Assembly: GCA_014859065.1 (NCBI GenBank)
Contig: JACUUU010000001.1
Span: 1 to 52,613 of the forward strand
Length of the DNA stretch: 52,613 nt
Origin: Anaerolineales bacterium
GTDB taxonomy: Bacteria; Chloroflexota; Anaerolineae; Anaerolineales; UBA4823
Direction: 5' to 3'
This document shows, piece by piece, positions 6,800 through 49,193 of the stretch (the stretch's first letter is position 1; each line of letters begins with the position of its first letter). Made by a program: the position numbers and the translations under genes. Below the pieces are notes generated by a model. That model saw nothing but the letters and a program-made list of their open reading frames with translations, had not been told where the DNA came from and did no database searches.

Positions 6800-7245
6800 G
6801 GCAATTCTTTGATGATCTTTCCAGGCTGTTGGTATCCCCAGGAATAGATTGGTTTAACCTTTCCTGTCTTTTAGTATATCATTTCTTGCTTGATGGATGG
6901 ATTAATATCCCCCAAGATTCTTAAGAGTTACCCCACAGCGCCAGCGCTCTTCAACCCAAAAGACACCCTCGCATGTCGCTGCGAGCTGAACTTTGGCCTA
7001 AGCGAAGCGACGCAGTCTCCACCAAATAAATTGTTGGAGTTTGCCACGTCACAAAGCCGACAAAGAACGTCGGTTGTTCCTCGCAAAGACATTAACTTTG
7101 GATGTTTCTTAAGAGAAAGTCACAATTCAAGACTCGCCAGAATGTCTCTCATTTAACCTAAGTATTAAATGTTTGCCAGTATCTCAAATACGGTCAAGAA
7201 TTTCAAGTCAAGATACTTGCATCTCCCGAGTAAACCATGGTCGGA

Positions 7246-7914
7246 TTACCTGAATAGGAGGATGAATATTGTCCCGCTGACCGCCGCCAAAGCATCCGTC
7301 AACAGAGCCCGCAGGGCGAATTTATTGGAATTATACGGCCAGTGGATAGCTGCTCCAGCCAGGAAAGCTCCAGGCAAGCCCTGTCCGAACCCGAACAAGA
7401 ACACGGTCACTAACAAAGCCCGGGAAGCCATGCGTGTCCAGGCAGTCCGGATGACTTCTTTACGGTATTCGGTGTTGGATACAACCATGACCCGCTCGCT
7501 GATATACCAGACATAGGTAACCAGCAGGTACCCGCTGGCATAAATGAAGAAATCCGAGGAAACTGGCAAGATCATTCCGGCGTACTCCCGTTCAACCAGA
7601 AAGGCGATAAGAGCGATGGATGTGAGGTGAAAAGACTGGTCAATGGTATACAATCTGATGTTCCAATTGGGACGGTATTTCTGCAGTTTGAGTTTGCCAA
7701 AGTCAATCCCAAAGTGAGTTACAGTCAGGATGAGCAAGTAAGGCCAGAGCAGCGTGCGAGCCTCGCCAGCCAGGGTGAGCAAGACAACTAAGTGAACGCT
7801 GACATGGATAAGCAAAACCCCCAATTTTTCCTTGTTTCTAGCCATCCATTCGGGTTGTAGGGGGTAATCACCAATCAGGTGAGAGAAGAAAAGGAACCAG
7901 AACATACCGTCCAC
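7246..7914 (-). CDS. DUF3307-like polytopic membrane protein
   Basis: The N-terminal motif FSHLIGDYPLQPEWMARNK is typical of DUF3307. Several hydrophobic helices are present. The start lies 2 nt after the stop of the upstream kinase gene. Confidence 0.65.
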   Translation of the reverse strand: MDGMFWFLFFSHLIGDYPLQPEWMARNKEKLGVLLIHVSVHLVVLLTLAGEARTLLWPYLLILTVTHFGIDFGKLKLQKYRPNWNIRLYTIDQSFHLTSIALIAFLVEREYAGMILPVSSDFFIYASGYLLVTYVWYISERVMVVSNTEYRKEVIRTAWTRMASRALLVTVFLFGFGQGLPGAFLAGAAIHWPYNSNKFALRALLTDALAAVSGTIFILLFR

Positions 7915-7916
7915 TC

Positions 7917-9761
7917 TTATGCCAACAAGCGCTGGTGCGTGGTGCGCATACAGGTGTCCATGATTACCTCCAAACCCGCTCGCCAGGCTAACTGGGCAGC
8001 TGCCTCGTTAATGATCCCTTCCTGCATCCATACGACCTTGGCATTAATCTGGATTGCTTGGTCAACGATTTCAGGGACGGCCTCACTCCGTCTGAAGATC
8101 AGGACGATATCGATAGGATCTGGAACAGCGGTTAAATCTGCATAAGCTGGCTCGGATAATAATTCCTTGAACTTAGGATTGACCGGGATGATACGGTATC
8201 CTTTAGATTGAAGGTAAGCAGGGACGCTGTGAGAAGGGCGTTCAGGGTGATCCGTTATCCCGACTACAGCGATGTTGTGACTGTCATTCAGGATTTGGCG
8301 AAGTTTCTCGTCGTTAGGCCTAAGATTATTCATAATGGGGCTCGGTCCTGCCCGTGCTTTTTCGAAGTTTACCGGCAAGATCACCTGGAAACAGGTAAAT
8401 CCTGGCTTGGAGAAAAGTTTGATATCACCTTTGTGTTTGTTGATGATGTTGTAGGTGATATTCAGACCCAGACCAGTACCTTTACCAACCGGTTTGGTGG
8501 TGAAAAATGGGCTGAACACCTTGGACTGGATGTCAGTTGGAATGCCTGGACCGTCATCTTCGATCTCTACAATTACCTCGTCACCATCTCTAGAGGTGCG
8601 GATTGTAATCTCACCTTTGCCATCCATGGCTTGGATTGAGTTATCGATAATGTTGGTCCAGACTTGATTTAGTTCACTGCCATAAGCTAGGATGGGTGGC
8701 ATGTCACTGGCGTATTGGCGCAGGACGTTGACGCCCTGTTTGAGTTTACTGCGCAGCATGACCAGCGTGTTATCCAGGCTTTCGTGCAGGTCGATTTCTT
8801 GGATGGGAGCCTGGTCGAGATAAGAGTAGGACATGAGGGATTTTACAATATCTGTAATTCTGGAGGCACCCTGGGAGATTTCCTCCAATAACGAATAGGT
8901 GTTGTAAATCTTTCCCAGCCATGAGACGATAACGGGCAGCTGTTGGGGGGAAAATTTCTCAGTCAGAAAATCTAACTGCTCATATTGGTAACCTAGGTTA
9001 ACAAGTGTTGGGGCGATTTCCCAGGCATCCTCGACACCTTTATTTTCCAACCACGCTTCTATCTCGGATTCGCGATCGCTGCGGTTAAGGGAGTTCAAGC
9101 TTTCAGGATTGCTCGAATGTTGCTTAGCGCGCTGATCCAACTCGGCGAGCGTATCCATCTGGCTTTGAGTCAGGTCCGCTTGGATCAGTCCGAGGTTTGC
9201 TTGCTGTAACTGCCCCAGGGATGCCTTTAATTGGTCAGCTCCGCGCTGTGTGGCAGAAGCCGGGTTATTGAGCTCGTGAGCGATCCCGGCAGTGAGTGAG
9301 CCTAACTGGGCCATTTTTTCACTGTCTCGCAAGAGCAATTCGGTGGTTTTCAAGCGGGCTGCTGTCGTGAATACCATAGCACGGGCTGCGGAGGGGCTGG
9401 TATCGAGTAGATGATTGAGATGATCGTGGCTGATGGCCAGCAGTTTGCTGTCGGTCAGCGCTCGGCCGCTGGCGTTGCGGGTAGATGTCTCTAACATAGA
9501 CATCTCTCCGATTACATCTCCCGGTTGGCGGACTGCAAGGTGCACCTTCTTACCGCCAGAGGTCTTGTAGATCTCGATTTGCCCTTCTTTGATTACATAA
9601 GCTTTGTCACCAGGACTGCCTTCAGTGAACAATTCCTCACCAGCATTGAGGTTTATCTCAGCGATCATCTCACTCAGACGCCTTAGATCGTCGTCAGGCA
9701 TACCAGCAAAAAACGGGATTTTTTTCAAGAATTCATACATTTTCAAGCCTGTGTGATCCAA
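7917..9761 (-). CDS. Sensor histidine kinase: cyclic-nucleotide-binding domain + HisKA/HATPase + C-terminal CoA-binding (YccU-like) domain
   Basis: cNMP-binding fold (FTEGSPGDKAYVIKEGQIEIYK...GDVIGEMS). H-box GIAHELNNPASA. ATPase N/G boxes (WTNIIDNSIQAM, DDGPGIP, GKGTGLGL). The C-terminal 125 aa (NIAVVGITDHPERPSHSVPAYLQSKGYRIIPVNP...VWMQEGIINEAAAQLAWRAGLEVIMDTC) aligns by eye with E. coli YccU-type CoA_binding_2 proteins. Confidence 0.9.
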   Translation of the reverse strand: MDHTGLKMYEFLKKIPFFAGMPDDDLRRLSEMIAEINLNAGEELFTEGSPGDKAYVIKEGQIEIYKTSGGKKVHLAVRQPGDVIGEMSMLETSTRNASGRALTDSKLLAISHDHLNHLLDTSPSAARAMVFTTAARLKTTELLLRDSEKMAQLGSLTAGIAHELNNPASATQRGADQLKASLGQLQQANLGLIQADLTQSQMDTLAELDQRAKQHSSNPESLNSLNRSDRESEIEAWLENKGVEDAWEIAPTLVNLGYQYEQLDFLTEKFSPQQLPVIVSWLGKIYNTYSLLEEISQGASRITDIVKSLMSYSYLDQAPIQEIDLHESLDNTLVMLRSKLKQGVNVLRQYASDMPPILAYGSELNQVWTNIIDNSIQAMDGKGEITIRTSRDGDEVIVEIEDDGPGIPTDIQSKVFSPFFTTKPVGKGTGLGLNITYNIINKHKGDIKLFSKPGFTCFQVILPVNFEKARAGPSPIMNNLRPNDEKLRQILNDSHNIAVVGITDHPERPSHSVPAYLQSKGYRIIPVNPKFKELLSEPAYADLTAVPDPIDIVLIFRRSEAVPEIVDQAIQINAKVVWMQEGIINEAAAQLAWRAGLEVIMDTCMRTTHQRLLA

Positions 9762-27742: not shown

Positions 27743-28576
27743 ATGCCGGAGCTTCCAGAGGTTGAAACGATAGCAGCAAGGTTGCGGAAAGGGGGGCGGA
27801 ACCATGCATCCACACCGCCGCTGTTAGGGAAACGAATCATATCTGCTCAAGTCTTCTGGGAACGTACCCTAGCTGAGCCTACTCTGGAAAAGTTCAAGCA
27901 AAAAATTTCGGGGCAGCTTATCCGTGAAATCAGCCGCAGAGGCAAGTTTTTGCTCATGGATGTGTCTGGAGAGACCTTACTGATTCACTTACGTATGAGT
28001 GGCGACTTATTGGTAGAGACTGACGATAAACTTTTATCTACCTATTACCGAATGGTGTTATCTTTTGAAGATGGGATTCGTCTGGCACTCAATGACCCAC
28101 GTAAGTTCGCGCGTGTATGGTTGACAGCAAACCCTGATGCGTTGCTAAGCCACCTTGGACCCGAACCTTTAGCAGCGGATTTCGCCCCAGATTTGTTTTA
28201 CAGGCGATTAGTGGCACGCCGACGCCAGCTTAAACCACTGCTCATGGATCAGAGTTTCCTGGCTGGTTTAGGAAATATTTACACCGATGAAGCGCTGCAC
28301 CAAGCTGGATTACACCCTCAACGCATATCAACAAGCTTAGATATCCGCGATGCTGAACGCCTCTGGATGAGCATCCGGCATGTTCTTAAAGAAGGTATCC
28401 GCCGTAATGGGGCGTCAATCGATTGGGTGTATCGAGGAGGTGACTTCCAAAATTATTTTCGTGTTTATCAACGCAATGGTGAGCCGTGCCCTGTGTGCGA
28501 TACTCCCATTCAACGCATCACAGTCGGGCAACGTGGGACACATTTCTGCCCCCAATGCCAAAGGTTGGAGGAATAA
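27743..28576 (+). CDS. mutM: Formamidopyrimidine-DNA glycosylase
   Basis: N-terminal MPELPEVE, H2TH region LMDQSFLAGLGNIYTDEALH, and C-terminal zinc finger CPVCDTPI...GTHFCPQCQ. Confidence 0.95.
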   Translation: MPELPEVETIAARLRKGGRNHASTPPLLGKRIISAQVFWERTLAEPTLEKFKQKISGQLIREISRRGKFLLMDVSGETLLIHLRMSGDLLVETDDKLLSTYYRMVLSFEDGIRLALNDPRKFARVWLTANPDALLSHLGPEPLAADFAPDLFYRRLVARRRQLKPLLMDQSFLAGLGNIYTDEALHQAGLHPQRISTSLDIRDAERLWMSIRHVLKEGIRRNGASIDWVYRGGDFQNYFRVYQRNGEPCPVCDTPIQRITVGQRGTHFCPQCQRLEE

Positions 28577-37603: not shown

Positions 37604-39742
37604 GTGCGAATGGATTCTTTCTCTTTAACTAGCAACCAGCTAAAGCTTGTCGAGATGCCCTTGAATGAAAAGGTCTTCCTGGAGGGACCTGCGGGTACCG
37701 GGAAGACGACAGCAGCAGTCCACAATCTGGAGCGTATGGTTATTAAGGGCGTTGACAGTGGTTCAATCTTGATACTCTTGCCGCAGCGCACCCTGGCAGC
37801 TCCGTATACCCGCACCCTGGCTAAGATGGGGTTCCCAGATGGAGGTGTCGCCGGCATCATGACTTTAGCAGGGCTGGCGCGCAGGATGGTTGACCTCTTC
37901 TGGCCGTTAGTGGTGGAGGAGGCTGGTTTTGAAAGACCTGACAAAGCACCAGTTTTTCTGAACATGGAAACCGCCCAATACTTCATGGCACGTGTTGTCA
38001 GACCACTGTTCAGCCGGGGTTTTTTCGAATCGGTGACAATCCACCGAAATCGGCTCTACAGCCAAATACTTGATAATCTCAACAAGTCGGCTGTGGTTGG
38101 ATTTCCATACACCACGATTGCTGCTCGATTAAAGAGTGCCTGGAAAGGGGAACCTGGTCAGGCGCGTGTTTACGATGATGCTCAAGAATGTGCTGTCCTA
38201 TTTCGTCGTTATTGCCTTGAGCACAATCTCCTTGATTTCTCTCTTCAGATTGAGGTGTTTGCCAAGCACATTTGGACGAACCAACTTTGCAGGGCGTATT
38301 TATGCACTCGATACAAACATTTATTCTTCGATAACCTGGAAGAAGACACCCCCATAACGCATGATCTCATCAGGGAGTGGTTACCCCAATTTGAGTCTGC
38401 ACTGTTGATCTTCGACCAAGATGGAGGTTACCGGCGTTTTCTAGGAGCTGATCCTGTGACCGGAAAAACCCTCAAGGATGTGTGTGGGAATAAAATGGTT
38501 TTCACAAACTCATTTACCAATCCCCCGGAATTAGAGGCGACGGCAACCCATTTTGGTCGAGTTATGAACTATCCGGTTAAGACACAAAGCGCGGACAGTC
38601 GCGCAGATAGTTTTATTAAGGGGAGGAAAACTAAATCACCTCTTGTGGTGCAATTTAACCGATATTACCCGCAAATGCTTGATTGGGTTGCCGAGACGAT
38701 CTCGCACCTGATTCACAACCAAAAGATCAGTCCAGGTGAAATTGTAGTATTAGCTCCGTATCTATCCGACTCCTTACGGTTCTCGTTGATCGAAAGATTA
38801 CATCGTTTCGAGATCCCGGCAATTTCTCACCGACCATCACGACCATTGAGGGAAGAACCTGCTGCCCAATGTTTGTTGACTTTGGCTACATTAGCTCATC
38901 CTGAATGGGAAATAAGACCCAGTAAGTATGAGGTCGTTTATGCGTTGGTAGAAGCTGTCGCGGGGATGGATCTCGTTCGAGCACAGCTCCTGACAGAGAT
39001 TGTCTATCGAACACGTGTAGGGCAACCTGTGATGACACCTTTCTCGAGCATCAAGGCAGACTTTCAAGAGCGGATTACCTATACTCTAGGTGAGAGGTTC
39101 GACCATTTACGAAATTGGATTGAAGATTACCGGCAAGATCCACTGAATGAACTGGATCACTTTTTCAGTCGATTATTTGGAGAGGTCCTATCACAACCAG
39201 GGTATGGCTTTCACTTCGATTATCGGTCCGGTAGAATTGCTGCAAACCTGATCGAGTCGGCAAGAAAATTTCGCCAGGTAATGAGTGAGGTTGAATTCAA
39301 TTCAGGCAAATCTATCAGCCAGGAATACATCGAGATGGTTTATGAAGGGGTTGTAGCAGCTCAATATATCGGCAGCTGGGATAGCCGACCAGGTGACGCT
39401 GTATTTCTGTCTCCAGCATATACGTTTCTTATGAGCAACAGACCAGTAGAATTTCAATTCTGGCTCGATATAGGTTCGACAGGATGGTTTGAACGCCTTT
39501 ACCAACCACTTACTCATCCTTATGTGCTAAGCCGTCATTGGAAAGATGGAACACCTTGGAATGATTCAGATGAACTCCAGGCGGCTCATCAGTCACTGAC
39601 TCTGCTTATCTTGGGCTTGATACGGCGCTGCCGTAATAAGATTTACCTGGCAACCAGTGAGTTAGGAGAACAAGGGTATGAGCAGAAAGGGAATTTATTG
39701 AGAATCGTTCATCAGGTATCTCGGCAAATTCAAAATGGGTAG
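37604..39742 (+). CDS. AddB/RexB-like SF1 helicase-like protein lacking a nuclease domain
   Basis: Walker A LEGPAGTGKTT. AddB-like Walker-B region LFFDNLEEDTPITHDLI. Divergent C-terminal half (IRRCRNKIYLATSE). No PD-(D/E)XK motif. The ORF opens at GTG 37604; ATG 37610 is an alternative start. Confidence 0.65.
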   Translation: MRMDSFSLTSNQLKLVEMPLNEKVFLEGPAGTGKTTAAVHNLERMVIKGVDSGSILILLPQRTLAAPYTRTLAKMGFPDGGVAGIMTLAGLARRMVDLFWPLVVEEAGFERPDKAPVFLNMETAQYFMARVVRPLFSRGFFESVTIHRNRLYSQILDNLNKSAVVGFPYTTIAARLKSAWKGEPGQARVYDDAQECAVLFRRYCLEHNLLDFSLQIEVFAKHIWTNQLCRAYLCTRYKHLFFDNLEEDTPITHDLIREWLPQFESALLIFDQDGGYRRFLGADPVTGKTLKDVCGNKMVFTNSFTNPPELEATATHFGRVMNYPVKTQSADSRADSFIKGRKTKSPLVVQFNRYYPQMLDWVAETISHLIHNQKISPGEIVVLAPYLSDSLRFSLIERLHRFEIPAISHRPSRPLREEPAAQCLLTLATLAHPEWEIRPSKYEVVYALVEAVAGMDLVRAQLLTEIVYRTRVGQPVMTPFSSIKADFQERITYTLGERFDHLRNWIEDYRQDPLNELDHFFSRLFGEVLSQPGYGFHFDYRSGRIAANLIESARKFRQVMSEVEFNSGKSISQEYIEMVYEGVVAAQYIGSWDSRPGDAVFLSPAYTFLMSNRPVEFQFWLDIGSTGWFERLYQPLTHPYVLSRHWKDGTPWNDSDELQAAHQSLTLLILGLIRRCRNKIYLATSELGEQGYEQKGNLLRIVHQVSRQIQNG

Positions 39743-39903
39743 AATGAAAATATTCTTCGGCTGCGATGGGGTTGGTTTTGAAGATCTGCAAGTGACTTTC
39801 CCCAAGATCAAGAATTGTGCTGGAGGAAAAATTCGCCTGCCTGGAAGCTTTGGCATTTTGACACAAGCGCGCTGCAGCCGGATTAATTTAATTGGTGGAG
39901 ATC

Positions 39904-42144
39904 ATGTTCCAACCACGCCCTAAGCAAGAAGAAGTTTTGAGTTACCGGAGAGGCAAGATGGGCGTAGCTGCTGTTCCGGGGAGCGGCAAAACACATACCT
40001 TATCCTATTTGGCAGCTAATATTATCCTTCGCGAGGAGCTGGAGGAGGATCAGGAAGTCTTAATCGTCACGCTGGTGAACTCAGCCGTGGACAACTTTGC
40101 CGGTCGGATTTCTGGCTTCCTGCATGAAAATGAGATCTTCGCTTACCCGGGATTTGGTTACTGCGTGCGAACGCTGCACGGTTTATCTCATGATATCGTG
40201 AGGGAACGACCTTCTTTGGTTGGCTTGGCGGATAATTTCCAAATAATCGATGAACAAACCGCAAACCAGATCCGCAGTGAGGCTGCCAGGGCATGGCTGC
40301 ATGCCAATATTGGGGTATTGGATGAATATTTCAGATCGGATCTGGATGAAAGGCAACGTGAGCTCGTTCGCCGTAAAGATCTGCTCGAGTTAGTCACGGG
40401 CATCGCCAACAGTGTTATCCGATCCGCTAAGGATCAGCAGATCACTCCGGAGAAATTACGCCTGCAATTAGATGGCTTGCCGCTGCCTCTCCGCTTGGCT
40501 GAAATGAGCTGTGAAATTTATTCAGACTACCAACGCGGCTTGAACTATAGAGGCGCAGTTGATTTTGATGATCTTACCAGGTTGGCGTTACAAGCTTTAA
40601 AATCAGATGAAGAATACCTGCAGCGCTTGCGCCATCGTTGGCATTATATCCTGGAGGATGAGGCGCAGGACAGCAGCCGTCTCCAGGAAGAGATCTTAGA
40701 GTTATTGGTCGGGGAGAATGGGAATTGGGTGCGTGTTGGTGATCCCAATCAAGCCATTTATGAGACCTTTACGACTGCAAATCCAGAATATTTACGGAGT
40801 TTTCTGAAGCGAGATGACGTATATGCAAGAGAATTGCCTAACTCTGGTCGTTCTACTCTCAGCATCATTTCACTGGCTAACCAGTTGATCCACTGGACAC
40901 AACATGAACACCCAAACGAAAATGTTCGTAACGCTCTAGCGCCACCTGAAATTGCCCCCACTCCCCATGGAGATCCCCAACCAAATCCGGAAGATAATCC
41001 TGCTGCTATAAGGTTTATCCCCAACAAATTCACCTCCCAGGAAGAGGTGCGAGCAGTGGCGGATTCTGTAGCTCGTTGGCTGCCTAAACATAACCAAGAA
41101 ACAGTTGCTATGCTGGTGCCTCGTAATCAAAGGGGCTTCGAAGTAGCTAAGGAATTGGGTAGAAGAAACATTGATTACGTAGAAAACTTACAGAGTTCAT
41201 CGACTACAAGGGCCACCGCAGGTGCTCTGGGTAATATAGTCAATTATCTGGCTGAGCCTCAATCCGCTAAAAAGCTGGCAACAGTTTATCGAGTTTGGCA
41301 AAGGGAAAATATCGAACAAAAAGGGCATACATCCAGGATTGCCGCATTGATAAGCTCCTGCAATCATGTTGAGAGCTTTATTTGGCCAAAAGTCAACCGT
41401 GATTGGCTGGATGAGGTAGAAACCCAACCAGAAGAAGGAGAATTTTTAGAAAAGTTGCGGGATTTTCGCCAGGTAGTCCAGAGGTGGCAGGGTTTGGTGC
41501 TGCTGCCCATCGATCAGGTAATCCTGACCCTTGCGCAAGACTTATTTGAGGATTTAACCCAGCTGGCTATCGCCCATAAGATAGCCCTGGTATTGCGGCG
41601 GGCGAGTGACTTGAACCCTGATTGGCGCTTGCCCCAGCTGGCTGGAGAACTGGCATTGGTGGCGAAAAATGAACGCAGATTCATCGGTTTTAGTGAGGAT
41701 GACCGATCATTTGATCCGGAAAATTATCGCGGTCGCGTTTATGTGACTACAATTCACAAAGCTAAAGGCTTGGAATGGGACCGCGTTTATCTGATGTCTA
41801 TCAACAACTACGATTTCCCCTCTGCAATCCAAGGTGACAAGTATATATCTGAGAAGTGGTTCCTGCGTGATGCGCTCAATCTCGAAGCTGAAGCGCTCGC
41901 TCAACTTAGAGCTGCATTTTCGAAGGATGAGTATAGCTGGTATCAAAAGGGAGAAGCGACACACAGCGCCCGTTTAGATTACGCTGCTGAACGATTGCGC
42001 CTGCTCTTTGTAGGCATTACCCGTGCGAAAAAGGAATTAATACTTACCTGGAATACAGGCCGTAATGGTGAATGCCGGGAAGCGCAGCCATTTACCGCAT
42101 TAAAGTACTTTTGGGAAGAATTCATCCATGACCATACCTCCTGA
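39904..42144 (+). CDS. UvrD/PcrA/AddA-type SF1A DNA helicase (no nuclease domain)
   Basis: Motif I AVPGSGKTH, motif II ILEDEAQDS, motif III VGDPNQAIY, motif V TIHKAKGLEW and motif VI LLFVGITRAKKEL. GGTGGAG RBS before ATG 39904. Confidence 0.9.
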   Translation: MFQPRPKQEEVLSYRRGKMGVAAVPGSGKTHTLSYLAANIILREELEEDQEVLIVTLVNSAVDNFAGRISGFLHENEIFAYPGFGYCVRTLHGLSHDIVRERPSLVGLADNFQIIDEQTANQIRSEAARAWLHANIGVLDEYFRSDLDERQRELVRRKDLLELVTGIANSVIRSAKDQQITPEKLRLQLDGLPLPLRLAEMSCEIYSDYQRGLNYRGAVDFDDLTRLALQALKSDEEYLQRLRHRWHYILEDEAQDSSRLQEEILELLVGENGNWVRVGDPNQAIYETFTTANPEYLRSFLKRDDVYARELPNSGRSTLSIISLANQLIHWTQHEHPNENVRNALAPPEIAPTPHGDPQPNPEDNPAAIRFIPNKFTSQEEVRAVADSVARWLPKHNQETVAMLVPRNQRGFEVAKELGRRNIDYVENLQSSSTTRATAGALGNIVNYLAEPQSAKKLATVYRVWQRENIEQKGHTSRIAALISSCNHVESFIWPKVNRDWLDEVETQPEEGEFLEKLRDFRQVVQRWQGLVLLPIDQVILTLAQDLFEDLTQLAIAHKIALVLRRASDLNPDWRLPQLAGELALVAKNERRFIGFSEDDRSFDPENYRGRVYVTTIHKAKGLEWDRVYLMSINNYDFPSAIQGDKYISEKWFLRDALNLEAEALAQLRAAFSKDEYSWYQKGEATHSARLDYAAERLRLLFVGITRAKKELILTWNTGRNGECREAQPFTALKYFWEEFIHDHTS

Positions 42145-43000
42145 TTTTTACTTCAGCCAGGCAAGACTCCAAGACTATGTAGAGTGCCGCCGTCGCTTCC
42201 AACTACGGTATTTGCTTGATATCGCTTGGCCCGCGGTAGAGGCTGAACCGGTAATTGAGAACGAAAGCCACTTGCAGATGGGAGAGCAATTCCATCATCT
42301 TATTCATCAGCATTTGGTTGGTATCAATTCCGAGCAGCTTTCTCGCCTGTCTCAGGGAAAACCTCTCCAAGGTTGGTGGCAAAATTACCTTGACTTTATG
42401 GAAGACCCTTTAATTAAGCCGCGGTTTTCTGGGCTTAATTCCAAATGCTTTGCAGAGATCAGCTTATCATCGACTTTGGGAGGCTACCGACTAATTGGCA
42501 AATTTGATGCCATCGCTGACTTTGAGGACCAGGGTGGTGTTAATGTGAGCATCTACGACTGGAAGACCTCTACCAACCGACCACCACGGGTTTGGTTAGC
42601 AAACCGCTTACAAACTCGAATCTATCCTTATTTGCTGATAAACGCGGGTGCTTCACTTATTCAGAGACAACCTATCCATCCAGATCAGGTAGAAATGATT
42701 TATTGGTTTGCTAATTTCCCTAACGATCCAGAGTATTTTAGTTACACACAATCCCAATTCGATCTAGATCATCGATATCTGACAGCGCTGGTCGATGAAA
42801 TTATACAACTACCTGCGGATGCATATTCATTAGCCTCAAATGACAGGAATTGCCGATTCTGTACCTATCGTTCTTTATGTGACCGCGGGACTAAGGCGGG
42901 GTTGATGGATGAAATCGAATTTGAAGGCTATGAGGAGGATAGAGACCAACCGGTTATCCCAATTCTAGATTTTGAGCAGATTGGTGAAATAGAATTTTAA
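42128..43000 (+). CDS. PD-(D/E)XK nuclease, Cas4/AddB-type with a four-Cys Fe-S cluster signature
   Basis: N-terminal SQARLQDYVECRRRFQLRYL (first Cys). Nuclease core GKFDAIAD...VSIYDWKTS and QTRIYPYLL. C-terminal CRFCTYRSLC. The start overlaps the helicase stop by 17 nt. Confidence 0.85.
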   Translation: MTIPPDFYFSQARLQDYVECRRRFQLRYLLDIAWPAVEAEPVIENESHLQMGEQFHHLIHQHLVGINSEQLSRLSQGKPLQGWWQNYLDFMEDPLIKPRFSGLNSKCFAEISLSSTLGGYRLIGKFDAIADFEDQGGVNVSIYDWKTSTNRPPRVWLANRLQTRIYPYLLINAGASLIQRQPIHPDQVEMIYWFANFPNDPEYFSYTQSQFDLDHRYLTALVDEIIQLPADAYSLASNDRNCRFCTYRSLCDRGTKAGLMDEIEFEGYEEDRDQPVIPILDFEQIGEIEF

Positions 43001-43006
43001 GATTCG

Positions 43007-45385
43007 ATGATGAGAAACTGGGTTGAACCTCATAAAGTGACCATACCAGCAGGTCTGGAGAATGAAGTTGGTGGACACCGGCTACTTAGCCAGCTATTGG
43101 TTCAGCGTGGGATCACTGATGTTGATGCAGCCAGGGCTTTTCTTGATTCACAATATTACCGCCCAACACCACCTGGTGAACTGGCGGGAATGGAAAAGGC
43201 AGTTGAACGTATAGAGAAGGCTATCCAAATTGGTGAAATCATTGGGGTGTGGGGAGATTTTGATGTCGATGGGCAGACTGCGACAGCGTTGTTGGTATCA
43301 GCTTTAAGAGGGTTGGGTGGTAAAGTCGAATATCACATTCCAATCCGAGAACGTGAATCACATGGCATAAACCTTCCGAGACTGAAACCTTTTTTAGATG
43401 GAGGTGTCGGATTACTAATAACCTGTGATACCGGAATTTCAGAGCACGAAGCGGTTAATTGTGCAAGTAAACGAGGGGTGGATGTGGTGATTACTGACCA
43501 CCATGAACTGCCCCCCAGATTGCCAAAGGCTTATGCTATCCTGAACCCAAAGTTGTTGCCTTCAAGCAGCCCACTTGCCAACCTTCCTGGGGTTGGTGTC
43601 GCATTCAAATTGGTTGAAGCTCTGTACCAAAACGCCGGACATGCAGGAGTGGTCGATTCCTATCTTGACCTGGTGGCTTTAGGTATCGTCGCTGATGTGG
43701 CTATCCAAGTTGGCGATACTCGCTATCTGCTTCAACGCGGCTTAGACGTTTTGAGGGATAATCAACGAGTTGGCCTACAAGTCATGATGGAATTGGCGGA
43801 TCTTCAGTCAGCCTCGCTATCTGAGGAACATATCGGTTTTGTGATAGCCCCGAGGCTGAACTCGCTTGGTCGATTGGCAGATGCCAATCCAGCTGTTGAA
43901 TTCCTGATAACTCAGGATATAAACAAAGCCAAAAAGTTGGGAGAGGAGTTGGAGTCATTAAATGCCAGGCGAAGGTTACTGACTGACCAGGTTTTCCAGG
44001 CTGCACAAACACAGATCGAAAAGGAGCCTACACTTTTATCTCAGGCTGCGTTGGTGCTGTCACACCAGACCTGGCCAGCTGGGGTGATAGGGATCGTCGC
44101 TGGTCGTCTGGCTGAACGCTATCAAAAACCAGCAGTCCTAATATCTGAACCACCAAGTGAATTAACACGTGGTTCGGCAAGATCGGTAGAGGGTTGTGAT
44201 ATATTCGAGGCGATCTCCTCTTGCCGCGAATTGTTGACAGGTTTTGGGGGCCACAGCATGGCTGCTGGTTTCTCTTTGGAGGCGGAACTAATCCCTGATT
44301 TCAGGCGGGCGTTGTCTGCAGTAGTTCAAAGCATGCTGGGGGAAGTCATATCTCCACCGAAACTGATTATCGATGGTTATTATGAACTGGGAGATTTAGC
44401 ATTTGAGTTTGTGAAGGAACTTGAACGTCTATCACCATTTGGTCCGGGAAATCCTGCCCCCATCCTGGTGAGCACGGGGTTAACCGTGAAGCAATTTAAC
44501 CCGATTGGAAGAAATTACGAGCATCTCAGGGTACTGGTTGAAGATAAGTACGGGCAGGTAAACAAGGTCATTTGGTGGAACGGGGCGGGATGGAAGTCTC
44601 GCGATCCTCTGGAAAACAGTGAGCCTTTCGACCTGGCTTATGTCGTGCGAACCAGCGATTATCGCGGGCAAAGCGATATTCAGATCGAATGGGTGGATAT
44701 CCGCCCGGCTGAAACCGCCCAGATTGAAGTGAATGGCGACCAACTCCTGATGGAGGTTCATGACTTCCGAGGTGAACCTGACCCCCTCGACCGTTTGAAA
44801 GGCTTGCTTGAGGAGAATGAACCCCAGATCTGGTGTGAGGGACTAGACCGACGCATGTTGGCTAACTTGGGTATCAAATCTTCCGATCGAGAGGAATTGA
44901 CCAAATCTAACAATCTGGTAATCTGGACTACACCTGCGGGGCGGAATGAGCTGATGGCTGCAATTGACAAAGTCTCTCCATCAGTGATTTCCTTGATTGC
45001 TGTGGAACCGCAAAACACTCAAGTTGAACCTTTCCTCAGATACCTGGCTGGTTTGTGCAAGTATGCCATTAACCACACCCAGGGTAAGGTCAAAGTAGCG
45101 TTGCTGGCAGCGGCTACCTCCCAATCTAAAGCGACTGTGAGGTTGGGCATATCCTGGTTAGAGAAAAGTGGTTTTCTTGCAGTGATGAACGAAGAAGCTG
45201 GTGAGCTTTCATTGGCGAAGGGAAAACAAACAGCTGTTGACGAACATACATATCTGCTTGATCAGCTCAAGGAATTGTTGGCAGAGACTGCCGCTTATCG
45301 AGCCTTCTTTTCTACAGCTGATGTTGACAGCTTACTTCCAACAACAAAGAACCCCACCAACCAGTTGAGGGGGGCAACCGGCTGA
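43007..45385 (+). CDS. recJ: Single-stranded-DNA-specific exonuclease RecJ with a C-terminal extension
   Basis: DHH motifs VWGDFDVDGQTA, ITCDTG and VVITDHH. DHHA1 motif GGHSMAAG. 792 aa. The start lies 6 nt after the nuclease stop. Confidence 0.9.
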   Translation: MMRNWVEPHKVTIPAGLENEVGGHRLLSQLLVQRGITDVDAARAFLDSQYYRPTPPGELAGMEKAVERIEKAIQIGEIIGVWGDFDVDGQTATALLVSALRGLGGKVEYHIPIRERESHGINLPRLKPFLDGGVGLLITCDTGISEHEAVNCASKRGVDVVITDHHELPPRLPKAYAILNPKLLPSSSPLANLPGVGVAFKLVEALYQNAGHAGVVDSYLDLVALGIVADVAIQVGDTRYLLQRGLDVLRDNQRVGLQVMMELADLQSASLSEEHIGFVIAPRLNSLGRLADANPAVEFLITQDINKAKKLGEELESLNARRRLLTDQVFQAAQTQIEKEPTLLSQAALVLSHQTWPAGVIGIVAGRLAERYQKPAVLISEPPSELTRGSARSVEGCDIFEAISSCRELLTGFGGHSMAAGFSLEAELIPDFRRALSAVVQSMLGEVISPPKLIIDGYYELGDLAFEFVKELERLSPFGPGNPAPILVSTGLTVKQFNPIGRNYEHLRVLVEDKYGQVNKVIWWNGAGWKSRDPLENSEPFDLAYVVRTSDYRGQSDIQIEWVDIRPAETAQIEVNGDQLLMEVHDFRGEPDPLDRLKGLLEENEPQIWCEGLDRRMLANLGIKSSDREELTKSNNLVIWTTPAGRNELMAAIDKVSPSVISLIAVEPQNTQVEPFLRYLAGLCKYAINHTQGKVKVALLAAATSQSKATVRLGISWLEKSGFLAVMNEEAGELSLAKGKQTAVDEHTYLLDQLKELLAETAAYRAFFSTADVDSLLPTTKNPTNQLRGATG

Positions 45386-45464
45386 TGGGGTTGCTGAGAT
45401 TATGCCATAGATTAGCAAATTGTGCAAGCTCCAATTGTCCCCCAAATTTTCACATTAGGGGTTG

Positions 45465-45692
45465 TTATCCACAGGTGGCGCAGTGACCTCCAGCACAGCT
45501 TGAACAGGCAGCTGCGGTGCTTTGCTGTGCCACAACACGACCATCTGAGTGAGCGAAAAACAAAGAAAGCATGCGCGAGGTGTGTTCACTCTGGCACTGC
45601 TTGCAGGGGATGGGCGCATCCGCTTCAGTCATCGACCGAAGTGCATCGAACTGAGTCTTACAATCCAAACAAACGTATTCGTAAATAGGCAT
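45465..45692 (-). CDS. FmdB-family zinc-ribbon protein
   Basis: MPIYEYVCLDCKTQFD...PCKQCQS (CxxC...CxxC), plus a C-terminal CSSCAGGHCATCG. ATG 45692 is preferred over the TTG at 45698. Confidence 0.85.
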   Translation of the reverse strand: MPIYEYVCLDCKTQFDALRSMTEADAPIPCKQCQSEHTSRMLSLFFAHSDGRVVAQQSTAAACSSCAGGHCATCG

Positions 45693-45733
45693 AGACAAAC
45701 CTTTAAATCAAGGATTTCCAGTAAATTACTCAC

Positions 45734-48223
45734 CTAAATTTTAATCCCAAGAGTGGTGGAGGTCAATAGGTGGGGAAAAAGAGGAGTGTGTGTTTCTCTG
45801 ACCCTGCGTGATCCTTTGGGTTGGGGAGGCAAGACACCCGGCGGGGCGGCATAACCAGCGTTGCTGAAAAGCCACAGGCGTAGGGTTTCTTCGTTCACCC
45901 CAAATGGGCCCAGAACTGTGCTGGCAGCACGCAGCAGCAGCTCAGCATAACGGACGGTGTCAACACTGGCTGGGTCAGGTGAGGTGGGCAAATCCCAGGC
46001 GTGCACGCCTGGATCACCCCGCGTGTAGAGAAAGCGGACGTACTGACCGGGGCTGATGGTTTTGCCGGCTGCCACCAGCTGTGCTACCGCGCGCGCTACA
46101 GGTGAGGGTGTGCGGTATTCATCCAGTACGCGGCTGAGTTTTTGGGTGACCAGCAGGTCCTCCAGGGGGAGGTGACCGGCGCGCAGAGCTGCCAAGCGGC
46201 GGCGCAGCAGCGACAATGCTCTGGGCAGGATAGACGCCTCCTGTTCAGGGGTATGCGCATGTGCCAATTCCTGCAATAACTCCAGCTGGGTGTGAATGAT
46301 GAAGGGCGGGGTATCGTGGCGGCGAGCCTCGATCCCCCGATATTTAAGTGACCCATCCTGGAAAACGCCAAAGTAGCGATTAGCGACCGGCACGCGCTGG
46401 TTAGAACGAGAGGGAAGGAAAGCCACCCAGCGATAAATACCTTCCAGGGCCACCGGCAAGCCAGTGCGGTTCATAATCTCGTCCAGCAGAGGCTGAACAG
46501 CGGAGACGGTCGAGGCGCCGGGTTTGTGCACCCACATACCGTCAACGTACAGGTGCAGCACGGTGAAACCCTGGTCTTCAGCAGCCTCTTTGGCGCGCAG
46601 CAGTGCCTCGCGCCCATAGGCAGTGACCGCCTCGTGAGCTTCGATACGTCCAAAGCGGGCATTCTTATATCCCAGGTAGCCGAAGCAGGTTACCAGCAGC
46701 CATTTGTGGGCTGATGTGCGCGCTTTATAAGCCTTGCGCTTAGGATGCCAGGGAGGCTGGCTGGTCAGGCGCAATTTAAGGGATAGCCGTTTCTCCAGCA
46801 AAGGGGAAAGTGTCTGGGGCACCAAGCCGGGTTGGGCGGGTGGTCCGGGCAAATCCAGCTCTTGCGCAGCCTGGGTGATAGCCTCGGAAGTGCCTACAGT
46901 TTCGGGGGAGATGTTAAAGCGCGCCATGATTCCAGGGTACATGGAGACAAAGTCAATCTCGGCCACGTCGCGGTGTAAGCCAATGATGGGATGGTAAACC
47001 AGGCCGCCCTGATCGGCGTGCAGCAAATCCAGCGCGCTCTTGGGACGTTCAGACTGCTGTTTGTGCCATGGGATCAAAATGCCCTGACGCAGGGCAGTGA
47101 GCATCTGCATGGACGAGATGCCCGTGCCAGGCGAGACCCGAGCGGCGGTTTGCAGCGGCAAGCCGGTGACGCGCGCCATCTCTTGAGCGCCTTCTATACC
47201 GTAGTCGTGAAACAAGATGGCATTGTAGCGGTCGATATGCCAGCGACCGAAGAGGTGAACCTGCCGACCCTGATGGATAATTTGACCGTAAGAAAAATAG
47301 GTATGCTCGCGCCGTTCATCTACACCCCGGTTGGGTTCCCGGTTGAGAGGTAAGGTGATGTGCAAGCGTTGGGCTAATTCAAGCAGGTGTGGCAACAACC
47401 AGGTGTCGCCCCAGGATGTGAGCAGCAAGTCAGGATCGTGCCGGTTCAGGATAGCGCACAGCCCTAGCAAGAGAGGTCGAGTCGGTTGTAGAGACAGGCG
47501 GTAGTCAAAGCGACCACAGCGGATAGTCAGATGTGAGGGTGGTGCGTGCTCTGGGTCACAATTCGGAGCGATGGTTATCACCCGTAAAGGTGGGATGATG
47601 GGGTCCAAGTCCCAGGGGGAGTCGAGTGGGGTAACATTCTCAATGCGGTTGTTTATGCTGGTGGTGAAGCGGCAGTAAGCCAGGGGGAAAACGTGGTGGG
47701 CTGCAGCGTAGCGCAACGCCAGGTGAACGTCAGCATCGTAATAAGTCAAGTCAGGGAATTGATGAGCAGTCTGTTGGAACAGCCGCGGTTGAGCGGCAGG
47801 TTGGTTGACCTGTACAGCCAGCACGGTCAGCGGCTGCTGACAGAAGAGATCGCGGCGTTCTACCCAATCCAGGTTAACGGGAATGGGTTGGTTCTCCAGT
47901 CGCTTTTGCAGGGCGCGCAGACGTGCAGTTGGGCCAGCTGCGTAGAAAGTGACCGGAAAAGGCTGGCACAAGCGGCGGCGGACACCATCCTCACCCAACA
48001 ACCAGAGCACCACCCCGTGCGGGGATGCCATTGAGGGAACGTGCTCTCCTTGATTGGAGCGACTCTGTGAGGCAAACACGTCGAGCACCCAGCCAGTATA
48101 TTCCACCGAAGGCACCTTATCCACCGGATGAATTTTATGCGCCTGATGTGCTTTATCCACCAGAATCAATCTGTGCGCTCTGCTCATCCCCATGCGCGGG
48201 AGGCAATCGATCCACCTGTTCAT
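45734..48223 (-). CDS. Family-B DNA polymerase, Pol-epsilon-like motifs, proofreading site lost
   Basis: Motif A EIDFVSMYPGIM, motif B KWLLVTCFGYLGYKNARF and motif C LHLYVDGMWV. The ExoI position reads VITIAP (no DxE). The start is uncertain (ATG 48223, 48193 or 48187, or GTG 48160), and all candidates overlap the upstream gene. Confidence 0.85.
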   Translation of the reverse strand: MNRWIDCLPRMGMSRAHRLILVDKAHQAHKIHPVDKVPSVEYTGWVLDVFASQSRSNQGEHVPSMASPHGVVLWLLGEDGVRRRLCQPFPVTFYAAGPTARLRALQKRLENQPIPVNLDWVERRDLFCQQPLTVLAVQVNQPAAQPRLFQQTAHQFPDLTYYDADVHLALRYAAAHHVFPLAYCRFTTSINNRIENVTPLDSPWDLDPIIPPLRVITIAPNCDPEHAPPSHLTIRCGRFDYRLSLQPTRPLLLGLCAILNRHDPDLLLTSWGDTWLLPHLLELAQRLHITLPLNREPNRGVDERREHTYFSYGQIIHQGRQVHLFGRWHIDRYNAILFHDYGIEGAQEMARVTGLPLQTAARVSPGTGISSMQMLTALRQGILIPWHKQQSERPKSALDLLHADQGGLVYHPIIGLHRDVAEIDFVSMYPGIMARFNISPETVGTSEAITQAAQELDLPGPPAQPGLVPQTLSPLLEKRLSLKLRLTSQPPWHPKRKAYKARTSAHKWLLVTCFGYLGYKNARFGRIEAHEAVTAYGREALLRAKEAAEDQGFTVLHLYVDGMWVHKPGASTVSAVQPLLDEIMNRTGLPVALEGIYRWVAFLPSRSNQRVPVANRYFGVFQDGSLKYRGIEARRHDTPPFIIHTQLELLQELAHAHTPEQEASILPRALSLLRRRLAALRAGHLPLEDLLVTQKLSRVLDEYRTPSPVARAVAQLVAAGKTISPGQYVRFLYTRGDPGVHAWDLPTSPDPASVDTVRYAELLLRAASTVLGPFGVNEETLRLWLFSNAGYAAPPGVLPPQPKGSRRVRETHTPLFPHLLTSTTLGIKI

Positions 48224-48479
48224 GGCAGCTCTGCAGGTCTTCTACCAGCTGGCGCAGCCGCACGACCTCCTTGTGTTCCTCAAGCAGCATAGCCAGTAGA
48301 AAAGTCTCCAGCGGCAGGGCATGGGTGGCGTAGGCAGCTGCGGCCAGGTGTTGGCGGGCAGCGGAGAACAGGTCGTCCAGGGCCAGCTGGTCGCCGCGCC
48401 GCAATGCCCTGCGGAAGCGTGCGAACGCTTCTTGTTGTTGTAAGAAGGCTTGGGTAATAGAAGGCAGCGTTCGTCCCAT
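48153..48479 (-). CDS. Hypothetical small helical protein (108 aa)
   Basis: GGAGGAG RBS 5 nt upstream of ATG 48479. Predicted all-helical and Ala/Leu/Gln-rich. The TAA stop (48153-48155) lies inside the polymerase ORF. Confidence 0.55.
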   Translation of the reverse strand: MGRTLPSITQAFLQQQEAFARFRRALRRGDQLALDDLFSAARQHLAAAAYATHALPLETFLLAMLLEEHKEVVRLRQLVEDLQSCHEQVDRLPPAHGDEQSAQIDSGG

Positions 48480-48500
48480 AAAAATCTCCTCCAATCAAGT

Positions 48501-49097
48501 TCACAGCAGGCGGGGCTGCGATGGGGGCACATGCGTTTCCAGCGTCCACACCTGACCAGCCGCGGCCTGTAAGGTCTTGAGCAGTTCTGGGCGGTGAGTG
48601 AGCGCTTCTGGTCGGGCGCTGACAGCTACCGGCGCAAGGTGGTTCAGCCGACGCAGTTGGGCAATGCAGGTCTGCAGCAGCTGCAAGCTTTCTCTGGCTG
48701 CCACACTTTCGTCATGGAAGGTGGACAGCAAGTCCAGAACGATGGTTGGGAGTGCTTGGGCTTCCGTCTCTCTCAGCAGGCTTTCCACCTGGTAGCAGGT
48801 GAAGGCGCGTGCCAGCTGGATACGCTCAAGGATAACGGGCAGTTCAGCTGTCTGGTCGCCTAAGGCGCGAGCGATGGCGGTGTTGCAGCGGTAAACGTCA
48901 AAACGGTTGCCGCCATCCAGCAGGAGCAATCGCCCGCGAAGCGCCAGGCGGGCTATGATCTCTATCATGAGCGCGCCGCCAGCATGGGGCGCTATCACTA
49001 AAAAGAAGGGGTGGGTGTGCTCAAGAGCTGTCAGGCTGATCCCATTCCTGGAAACCAGCCTATTTTCAACAGGAGGTGTGTTTGAAGGTATGTTCAC
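48501..49097 (-). CDS. Hypothetical protein, possible P-loop-less RecA/KaiC/ImuA-like fold
   Basis: The beta-strand/helix pattern resembles RecA-superfamily cores: FFLVIAPHAGGALMIEII sits where a Walker A would be (no GKT/S), and PTIVLDLLSTFHDE is a Walker-B-like strand. GTG start with no obvious RBS. Confidence 0.5.
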   Translation of the reverse strand: MNIPSNTPPVENRLVSRNGISLTALEHTHPFFLVIAPHAGGALMIEIIARLALRGRLLLLDGGNRFDVYRCNTAIARALGDQTAELPVILERIQLARAFTCYQVESLLRETEAQALPTIVLDLLSTFHDESVAARESLQLLQTCIAQLRRLNHLAPVAVSARPEALTHRPELLKTLQAAAGQVWTLETHVPPSQPRLL

Positions 49098-49193
49098 ACC
49101 CCAAACTTAGCGCAAATGGACGTCGAGTGCAATCCCTAAGTGGGGGGAAAACCGGAAGAAAATGGGGGTAACCCGCGCGGGGGATAATCAGTA

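Follow-up and report, generated by a model that had tools for sequence, protein, structure and literature searches.

The subject of this study is a block of minus-strand genes at positions 45465-49097 of a 52,613-nucleotide (nt) stretch of DNA from an uncultured member of the Anaerolineales (Chloroflexota; contig JACUUU010000001.1; referred to as the window). Three of these genes very probably represent the standard bacterial iRadA-PPB2-PolB2 'mutasome' operon, and the locus adds an example to a system already catalogued rather than revealing a new one. The association of the three genes in archaea and bacteria seems to have been first noted by Makarova et al. (2014). PPB2 ('partner of PolB2') and iRadA were named by Timinskas, Timinskas and Venclovas (2025; PMC11791011), who reported iRadA-PPB2-PolB2 as the only gene order in bacteria and, for 40 species, built models of a heteropentamer PolB2:iRadA:PPB2(3); the supplement of that paper holds more than 80 Chloroflexota/Anaerolineae entries of operon type 1a with the same HLYVDG motif. 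A preliminary description, based on the letters of the window, had proposed a mutasome-like translesion function for the cassette, which is also the proposal of the literature, and had stated that no characterised system of this composition was known, which the published operon (PMC11791011) contradicts. The identities of the three proteins, the sequence and fold features that define them and the conserved order of their genes were established in this analysis.

The longest of the three open reading frames (ORFs) encodes 829 amino acids (aa). Its motif A reads EIDFVSMYPGIM (Asp codon at 46952-46954), its motif B KWLLVTCFGYLGYKNARF and its motif C LHLYVDGMWV, in which one Asp (codon at 46541-46543) is kept and Tyr replaces the first Asp; the positions were checked by script. 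In Pfam only DNA_pol_B was recognised (5e-24). Among the NCBIfam models two archaeal-type 'type B' models ranked on top, with 2.5e-110 (NF004416, below its cut-off) and 4.7e-97, while the Pol II models reached only about 1e-14. A phmmer search against all PDB chains placed archaeal family-B polymerases (PolBs) first (P. abyssi, 9e-42) and Sulfolobus Dpo1 next, with further matches to Pol alpha (1e-17), Pol delta (2e-10) and E. coli Pol II (5e-8), and the same ranking was obtained with a profile of 60 diverse homologues (2e-108, 8e-51, 2e-41 and 1e-32). In BLASTP comparisons with the PolB2 proteins in the supplement of PMC11791011, the protein was 48% identical over about 400 residues to those of an Anaerolineaceae member (NMC86067, E 3e-134) and of a Bacteroidota member (RMD96860, 7e-124), and 37% identical to a Myxococcota protein (MDA8180269, 9e-79). 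Judged by these comparisons, the product of the 829-aa ORF is bacterial PolB2, that is, a group G2 polymerase derived from archaeal B2.

The polymerase had been likened to Pol epsilon in the preliminary description. The locus would then be an undescribed mutasome that joins a Pol-epsilon-like (G3) polymerase to a RecA/ImuA-type adaptor, in parallel to ImuA-ImuB-DnaE2. Motifs A to C are indeed superficially similar to those of Pol epsilon, as they are in all PolBs, and a bacterial Pol-epsilon-N-like group does exist (PMC7544198). However, no Pol epsilon chain was found among the 58 phmmer matches in the PDB at E <= 1e-3 or among the 60 best matches to the profile, and the exonuclease and polymerase sites are intact in group G3 (PMC12926913), whereas both are degenerate here. 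As the adaptor also matches RadA/Rad51 instead of RecA and the composition has already been published, we regard this explanation as highly improbable.

Group G2/PolB2 is described as having a dead exonuclease and a motif C with a single Asp (PMC7544198), and both features, which the preliminary description had seen in this family-B polymerase, were borne out by alignments of 60 homologues. The ExoII motif reads GDTWLLPHL, compared with GDNFDFPYL (canonical GDxFDxPYL), with Leu in place of the catalytic Asp. ExoI had been read as VITIAP with both carboxylates missing; the DxE pattern is absent under either candidate register, but the exact register is uncertain, since in the HMMER alignment to P. 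abyssi PolB the DIE faces NVTP and not VITIAP. The stretch that bears ExoIII (P. abyssi residues 270-353) could not be aligned. Taken by its motifs, the exonuclease domain of PolB2 is inactivated.

The column of the first motif C Asp contains Ile (24), Tyr (17), Leu (11), Asn (3) and Val (3) and in none of the 60 homologues Asp, while the second Asp is found in all 60. PolB2 was long predicted to be inactive, and the loss of the first motif C Asp and of the exonuclease site would agree with a catalytically dead relic in a complex with a non-synthetic, DNA-binding or scaffolding role. The motif A Asp, the KxxxxxxxGY core of motif B and the second motif C Asp are nevertheless invariant or near-invariant over the 60 homologues, which argues for selection on catalysis, and Sulfolobus Dpo2, with the same substitution, has polymerase activity and is needed for damage-induced mutagenesis. 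It is thus unlikely that the polymerase is such a relic. A further Asp, specific to PolB2 (LLHADQGG in the window), was found in all 60 homologues and is followed by Lys in 26, Arg in 19 and Gln in 11 of them, the window having the Gln variant. By its position, this Asp would belong to the published D(K/R) motif of the loop that touches the PPB2 arm.

The 198-aa protein was previously taken for a RecA/KaiC/ImuA-type core without a Walker A motif. A RecA-superfamily fold without a functional P-loop was indeed found, but its subfamily is RadA/Rad51. The P-loop position reads APHAGGA(L) and has no Lys-Thr/Ser, the Walker-B Asp is invariant among the homologues (IVLDLL here), and TIVLDLLSTFHDE, RAFTCYQ and a C-terminal QPRLL are also present. 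When a profile of 51 homologues was compared with the PDB, P. furiosus RadA was matched at 1.4e-5, with RAFTCYQ paired with ARAFNSNHQ and LVLDLLSTFYDE with LLIVDSLTSHFRSEY. The AlphaFold2 model of the protein has a predicted local distance difference test (pLDDT) score of 85.4 and a predicted template modelling (pTM) score of 0.80, and the top 50 Foldseek matches of this model in the PDB were all RadA, Rad51, DMC1 or RAD51 paralogues (probability 1.00, TM score about 0.6), with no RecA among them. The protein also shares 39% identity (8e-28) with an iRadA from the classification of Timinskas et al. The profile and the model both identify it as iRadA, a RadA/Rad51-type core that is predicted to be catalytically inactive, and not a RecA/ImuA-type protein.

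The C-termini of iRadA follow the pattern P-x-P-[P/Q]-[P/A/L]-R-L-[F/L] in 101 of 120 cluster representatives. The QPRLL of the window aligns with the ...TLW and ...LSLW tails of other family members, which resemble the QLVLW and QMELW clamp motifs flagged by the authors of PMC11791011. In that work beta-clamp motifs were found mainly on bacterial iRadA, and clamp complexes were modelled for the iRadA of Longilinea, Pelolinea and Brevefilum. As a separate observation, the N-terminal domain of PolB2 contains a QPRLF (AAQPRLFQQ, residues 143-147 in the numbering of the 829-aa ORF), which is kept in Chloroflexota and Bacteroidota homologues; it resembles the iRadA tail (SQPRLL here) and probably lies in a structural helix.

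The small helical partner proposed for the third gene is in agreement with the AlphaFold2 model of the 108-aa protein, which has a free N-terminal arm and three helices (residues 8-28, 31-51 and 58-91). This fold matches the published PPB2, a three-helix protein with an MGRT arm inserted between PolB2 and iRadA (PMC11791011). All 39 aligned homologues have the MGRT at the N-terminus without change, all PPB2 homologues are annotated with PF26485 (DUF8156), and the protein is 42-44% identical (1e-20 and 5e-17) to PPB2 proteins classified by Timinskas et al. Both the sequence and the model identify it as PPB2 (locus tag IBX69_00165).

The three minus-strand ORFs are tightly packed and measure 198 aa (48501..49097, start codon GTG), 113 aa (48153..48494) and 829 aa (45734..48223). 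The tight packing, the 21-nt gap with GGAGGAG, all quoted motifs and the positions of both Asp codons in the preliminary description were reproduced by sequence read-out and script. The 113-aa ORF contains an internal ATG at 48479, at which the invariance of MGRT fixes the start of PPB2. For PolB2, the homologues are conserved from EYTGW (ORF residue 41) onwards, many of them start with MEYTGW or MEHTGW, and AAGGTG (48118-48113) stands 6 nt upstream of a GTG at 48106, which is probably the start codon. With this start PPB2 and PolB2 are separated by a 46-nt gap. The earlier statement that the stop of the 108-aa gene lies inside the polymerase ORF therefore holds for the ORFs, but not as an overlap of the genes. 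From the stop of PPB2 to the conserved start of PolB2 there are two copies of the 9-mer GGTGGATAA (48161-48153 and 48125-48117) at a distance of 36 nt, and in close relatives variable HP(A/V)DK-like repeats are found at this position in the called N-terminus; in the metagenomic relative L088, PolB2 starts with MEYTGW 20 nt past the PPB2 stop. The repeat region may be a variable spacer, or else an extension of the N-terminus that contains repeats.

To place the operon among its relatives, one genome per GTDB species was scanned, by which at least 590 species were matched, and the best 80 loci were examined. At 50% identity, 830 homologue clusters scored E <= 1e-30. The best 80 loci carry mostly labels of Anaerolineae or other Chloroflexota, include the cultured Leptolinea tardivitalis and Levilinea saccharolytica, and comprise two loci labelled Proteobacteria (L009 and L074). 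Co-conservation of the three genes, which had been raised in the preliminary description, was confirmed: the order iRadA-PPB2-PolB2 on one strand was found in 68 of the 71 related loci in which 1 kb or more of sequence precedes PolB2, with a median iRadA-PPB2 gap of 11 nt and a median projected PPB2-PolB2 distance of about -8 nt. One of the exceptions (L055) has PPB2 but no detectable iRadA. The two others, L001 and L002, are the closest GTDB relatives among the best 80 loci, and here only PolB2 (6001-8295) and a zinc-ribbon gene are found, behind a divergent TPR/transglycosylase gene. In L081-L084, seemingly of the same lineage, iRadA (6001-6540) and PPB2 (6585-6842) stay behind tyrS at another site, with a GerE-type regulator gene upstream and unrelated metabolic genes downstream. 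The operon thus appears to have been split in this lineage.

As for function, the operon likely serves the extension of lesions and mismatches by a PolB2:iRadA:PPB2(3) complex, as extrapolated from the archaeal enzyme and the published models. It has been reported that archaeal Dpo2 is damage-inducible, is needed for targeted mutagenesis and acts as an extender of mismatches and lesions. By analogy, PolB2 of the window would be active without proofreading and would extend mismatched or lesion-distorted primer ends in damage tolerance. According to the models, the complex would be a heteropentamer in which PolB2 and iRadA, one copy each, join a PPB2 trimer. PolB2 would bind iRadA through a beta-alpha element like that of Rad51 oligomerisation, which precedes the conserved Asp-(Lys/Arg/Gln) (LLHADQGG here), and one PPB2 would put its MGRT arm into the cleft beside the active site and the DNA. 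The complex is probably anchored on the beta clamp by the C-terminal [P/Q]-P-R-L-[F/L] tail of iRadA, which is uncertain since Pro usually replaces Gln.

The window agrees with the type 1a operon of PMC11791011 in having all three components on one strand in the sole bacterial order, a PolB2 with a dead exonuclease and YVD, a PPB2 with MGRT, and an iRadA without the N-terminal domain and the P-loop Lys. Minor, lineage-specific differences are a 19-residue N-terminal extension of iRadA (198 compared with about 179 aa), a longer C-terminal tail of PPB2 (108 compared with about 88 aa), the 46-nt spacer with a repeated 9-mer instead of the usual small overlap before PolB2, Asp-Gln in place of Asp-Lys/Arg, and the lack of a LexA box and of lexA, SRAP or DUF72 neighbours.

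All three proteins are likewise homologous to those of the Sulfolobus islandicus system of PolB2/Dpo2, arCOG07300 and a RadA paralogue, which has the same dead exonuclease and single-Asp motif C and for which a role as a damage-tolerance extender polymerase is also proposed. However, the order in Sulfolobales is PPB2-PolB2-iRadA, the archaeal complexes have PCNA-binding motifs where the bacterial ones have beta-clamp-binding motifs, and regulation is by Orc1-2 and not by LexA. Experimental data exist for the archaeal Dpo2 only, and the bacterial operon is known by sequence and models. E. coli Pol V (UmuD'2C-RecA) and ImuA-ImuB-DnaE2 similarly combine an error-prone polymerase with a RecA/Rad51-superfamily subunit and a small accessory oligomer, with a proposed role in damage tolerance. 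In the operon of the window, by contrast, the catalytic subunit is of family B and not of family Y or C, the Rad51/RadA-type subunit is intrinsically inactive, and there is no UmuD, ImuB or DnaE2 homologue and no C-family or Y-family gene. The family-B fold and motifs A and B are also those of the G3 PolBs and E. coli Pol II (G1), but their intact exonuclease and DxD, their action as single subunits and the beta-clamp motif on the polymerase itself do not apply here.

Regulation by damage was examined through LexA sites. The palindrome ATAGAAC-N4-GTTCTAT (core AGAAC-N4-GTTCT, at most one mismatch) was found 5' of iRadA in 18 of 67 relatives, compared with 17 of 670 control windows (2.5%). It lies 25-190 nt upstream of iRadA in L007, L010, L014, L024, L032, L046, L058, L077 and ten further loci. 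We take this palindrome to be of the type of Gram-positive LexA boxes, and it is a candidate SOS box for the Anaerolineae class. A GAAC-N4-GTTC site with one mismatch (49084-49095) in the window was rejected: it overlaps the start codon, and 14 such sites in the window compared with 19.7 expected correspond to chance.

Several points weigh against assigning a standard mutasome function to this copy. The preliminary description had pointed to 49098-49193 as the place of a possible LexA box, and none was found there; the best AGAAC-N4-GTTCT site of the window has three mismatches, which is the background level. No lexA gene was found in the window, and neither lexA nor SRAP nor DUF72 was found as a neighbour of the operon. 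Near bacterial operons of this kind lexA is reported to be enriched (PMC11791011). Without box and without such neighbours, damage induction is unsupported in this genome. In addition, Asp-Gln stands in the window in place of the Asp-Lys/Arg motif, position 1 of the iRadA tails is mostly Pro and not the canonical Gln of clamp-binding motifs, and PPB2 as a monomer was modelled by AlphaFold2 with low confidence (pLDDT 66), a fold search with this model giving nothing significant. The activity, stoichiometry and clamp binding of bacterial PolB2 are all extrapolated from the archaeal enzyme and from models.

The operon appears to have its own promoter directly 5' of iRadA, from which a leaderless or very short-leader transcript may be produced. 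The spacer between tyrS and iRadA contains a TTGnnn-17-TAAnnT element and an invariant GGGATTG at equal distance to the start in the window, in L081, and in L085 and L088, although in L081 a GerE gene and not tyrS lies upstream of iRadA. The distance from the end of the -10 hexamer to the start codon (GTG in the window) is 6 nt in these four lineages. The element was not called by a generic promoter scan.

The genes around the operon suggest another possible role. DNA-repair genes converge on it on the plus strand (37604-45385), namely two UvrD-like helicases (the first very degenerate), a PD-(D/E)XK nuclease and RecJ, and an Fpg glycosylase gene (27743-28576, plus strand) lies further upstream. 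The complex could accordingly serve recombination-linked or gap-filling synthesis, recruited through the Rad51-like subunit, together with RecJ and the helicase-nuclease genes, and the presence of these neighbours in L085 as well as the missing LexA box at this copy would fit such a role. The link to RecJ is not conserved, however, as five unrelated genes intervene in L088 and most other loci are without these neighbours. [quoted passage not shown] A role in recombination is thus given only a small chance. The only C-family polymerase of the window, DnaE (71-4081, minus strand), is replicative: it passes the cut-off of the alpha-subunit model NF005298 but not that of the error-prone NF004225. 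This DnaE has 1336 aa and runs about 260 residues past the C-terminal end of the profile.

The GC content of the cassette is markedly high, as had been described: it is 0.58-0.60 in the three genes (0.63-0.66 at third codon positions, GC3), compared with 0.44-0.52 in TyrS, RecJ and other neighbours. An excess of 7-15 points over the flanks, and an HNH endonuclease gene nearby, might be taken as signs of a recently acquired mobile or defence island that carries a polymerase. The excess (GC3 about 0.64 compared with about 0.45) was, however, found across lineages, even where the operon is split, in the window (45734-49097) and in L001, L005, L008, L046, L081 and L085; for example, cassette and flanks have GC contents of 0.637 and 0.492 in L001, 0.608 and 0.457 in L005, 0.572 and 0.485 in L046, and about 0.55 and about 0.46 in L085. 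The nearest metagenomic relatives (L085 and L088, 75-86% identity) share the genes for MBL, HNH, a 179-aa protein, TyrS, iRadA, PPB2, PolB2 and the zinc-ribbon protein, and the synteny MBL-HNH-179aa-TyrS-iRadA-PPB2 is common to relatives. The divergence from L085 is in step with the flanks (89% for TyrS, 86% for PolB2, 84% for iRadA and 83% for MBL), the window has no tRNA gene, and no integrase or transposase turned up when its large ORFs were scanned with Pfam. The shared synteny, the flank-matched divergence and the GC excess in relatives point to vertical inheritance of the excess and not to recent acquisition, and by this genomic context there is hardly any probability left for a mobile or defence island. 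The replicative dnaE also has a high GC3 (0.69).

A 77-aa ORF for a zinc-ribbon protein (45465..45698), which was not discussed in the preliminary description, also falls within the interval studied. Among the related loci examined, this gene is found downstream of PolB2 only in the subclade of the window. It is preceded by a promoter-like TTGACC-17-TAAAAT at 45766-45738, which overlaps the end of PolB2 and is conserved as TTGACC-17-TAnAAT in L085 and L088. The gene probably forms a transcription unit of its own, outside the system. A co-transcribed fourth subunit was considered, and this candidate is weakened by the conserved promoter. Compensation for a lost Cys cluster after motif A of PolB2 was also considered and rejected, since 61 of 68 related PolB2s are without the cluster, regardless of whether a zinc-ribbon gene lies downstream. 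Four apparent zinc-ribbon matches are, in our own reading of their sequences, ribosomal protein L32. One may speculate that in this subclade the PolB2 complex has left SOS control for a constitutive promoter, possibly with a leaderless mRNA, and has gained the FmdB-type zinc-ribbon protein as a lineage-specific partner. The gene stays directly downstream of PolB2 even where PolB2 has been separated from iRadA-PPB2 (L001/L002 compared with L081-L084), but the proposal as a whole is improbable. The features of the locus are listed in Table 1; scans of the window for Rfam families and tRNAs gave no matches.

Table 1 Features of the iRadA-PPB2-PolB2 locus and its borders in the window
Feature	Position	Strand	Basis or remark
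Promoter-like element, 5' of iRadA	49104..49132	minus	TTGCAC 49132-49127, 17-nt spacer, TAAGTT 49109-49104
iRadA, predicted inactive RadA/Rad51 homologue, 198 aa, core domain only	48501..49097	minus	Profile, AlphaFold2, Foldseek, identity to classified iRadA
iRadA-PPB2 spacer, 21 nt	48480..48500	minus	GGAGGAG ribosome-binding site 48492-48486; direct reading of the sequence
PPB2 ('partner of PolB2', arCOG07300, PF26485/DUF8156), 108 aa	48153..48479	minus	MGRT arm and three helices; TAA stop 48155..48153
PPB2-PolB2 spacer, or N-terminal extension if an upstream start is used	48107..48152	minus	Reading of the sequence
PolB2, bacterial group G2 family-B polymerase, 790 aa from probable start GTG 48106	45734..48106	minus	ORF extends upstream to ATG 48223
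FmdB-family zinc-ribbon gene, starts MPIYEY	45465..45692	minus	Pfam Zn_ribbon_8 1.9e-14, TIGR02605 1.5e-15
Terminator-like hairpin, 18 pairs then T-rich tail	45350..45392	minus	Closes the minus-strand gene block; within the 3' end of the convergent recJ

With at least 590 GTDB species genomes matched, the bacterial PolB2 mutasome has a wide distribution, and it is known so far from sequence and models. Complete operons are present in the cultured Anaerolineae Leptolinea tardivitalis YMTK-2 (L046), whose LexA-type box at -56 is exact, and Levilinea saccharolytica KIBI-1 (L052), and these two strains are reasonable entry points for the biochemistry of this system.

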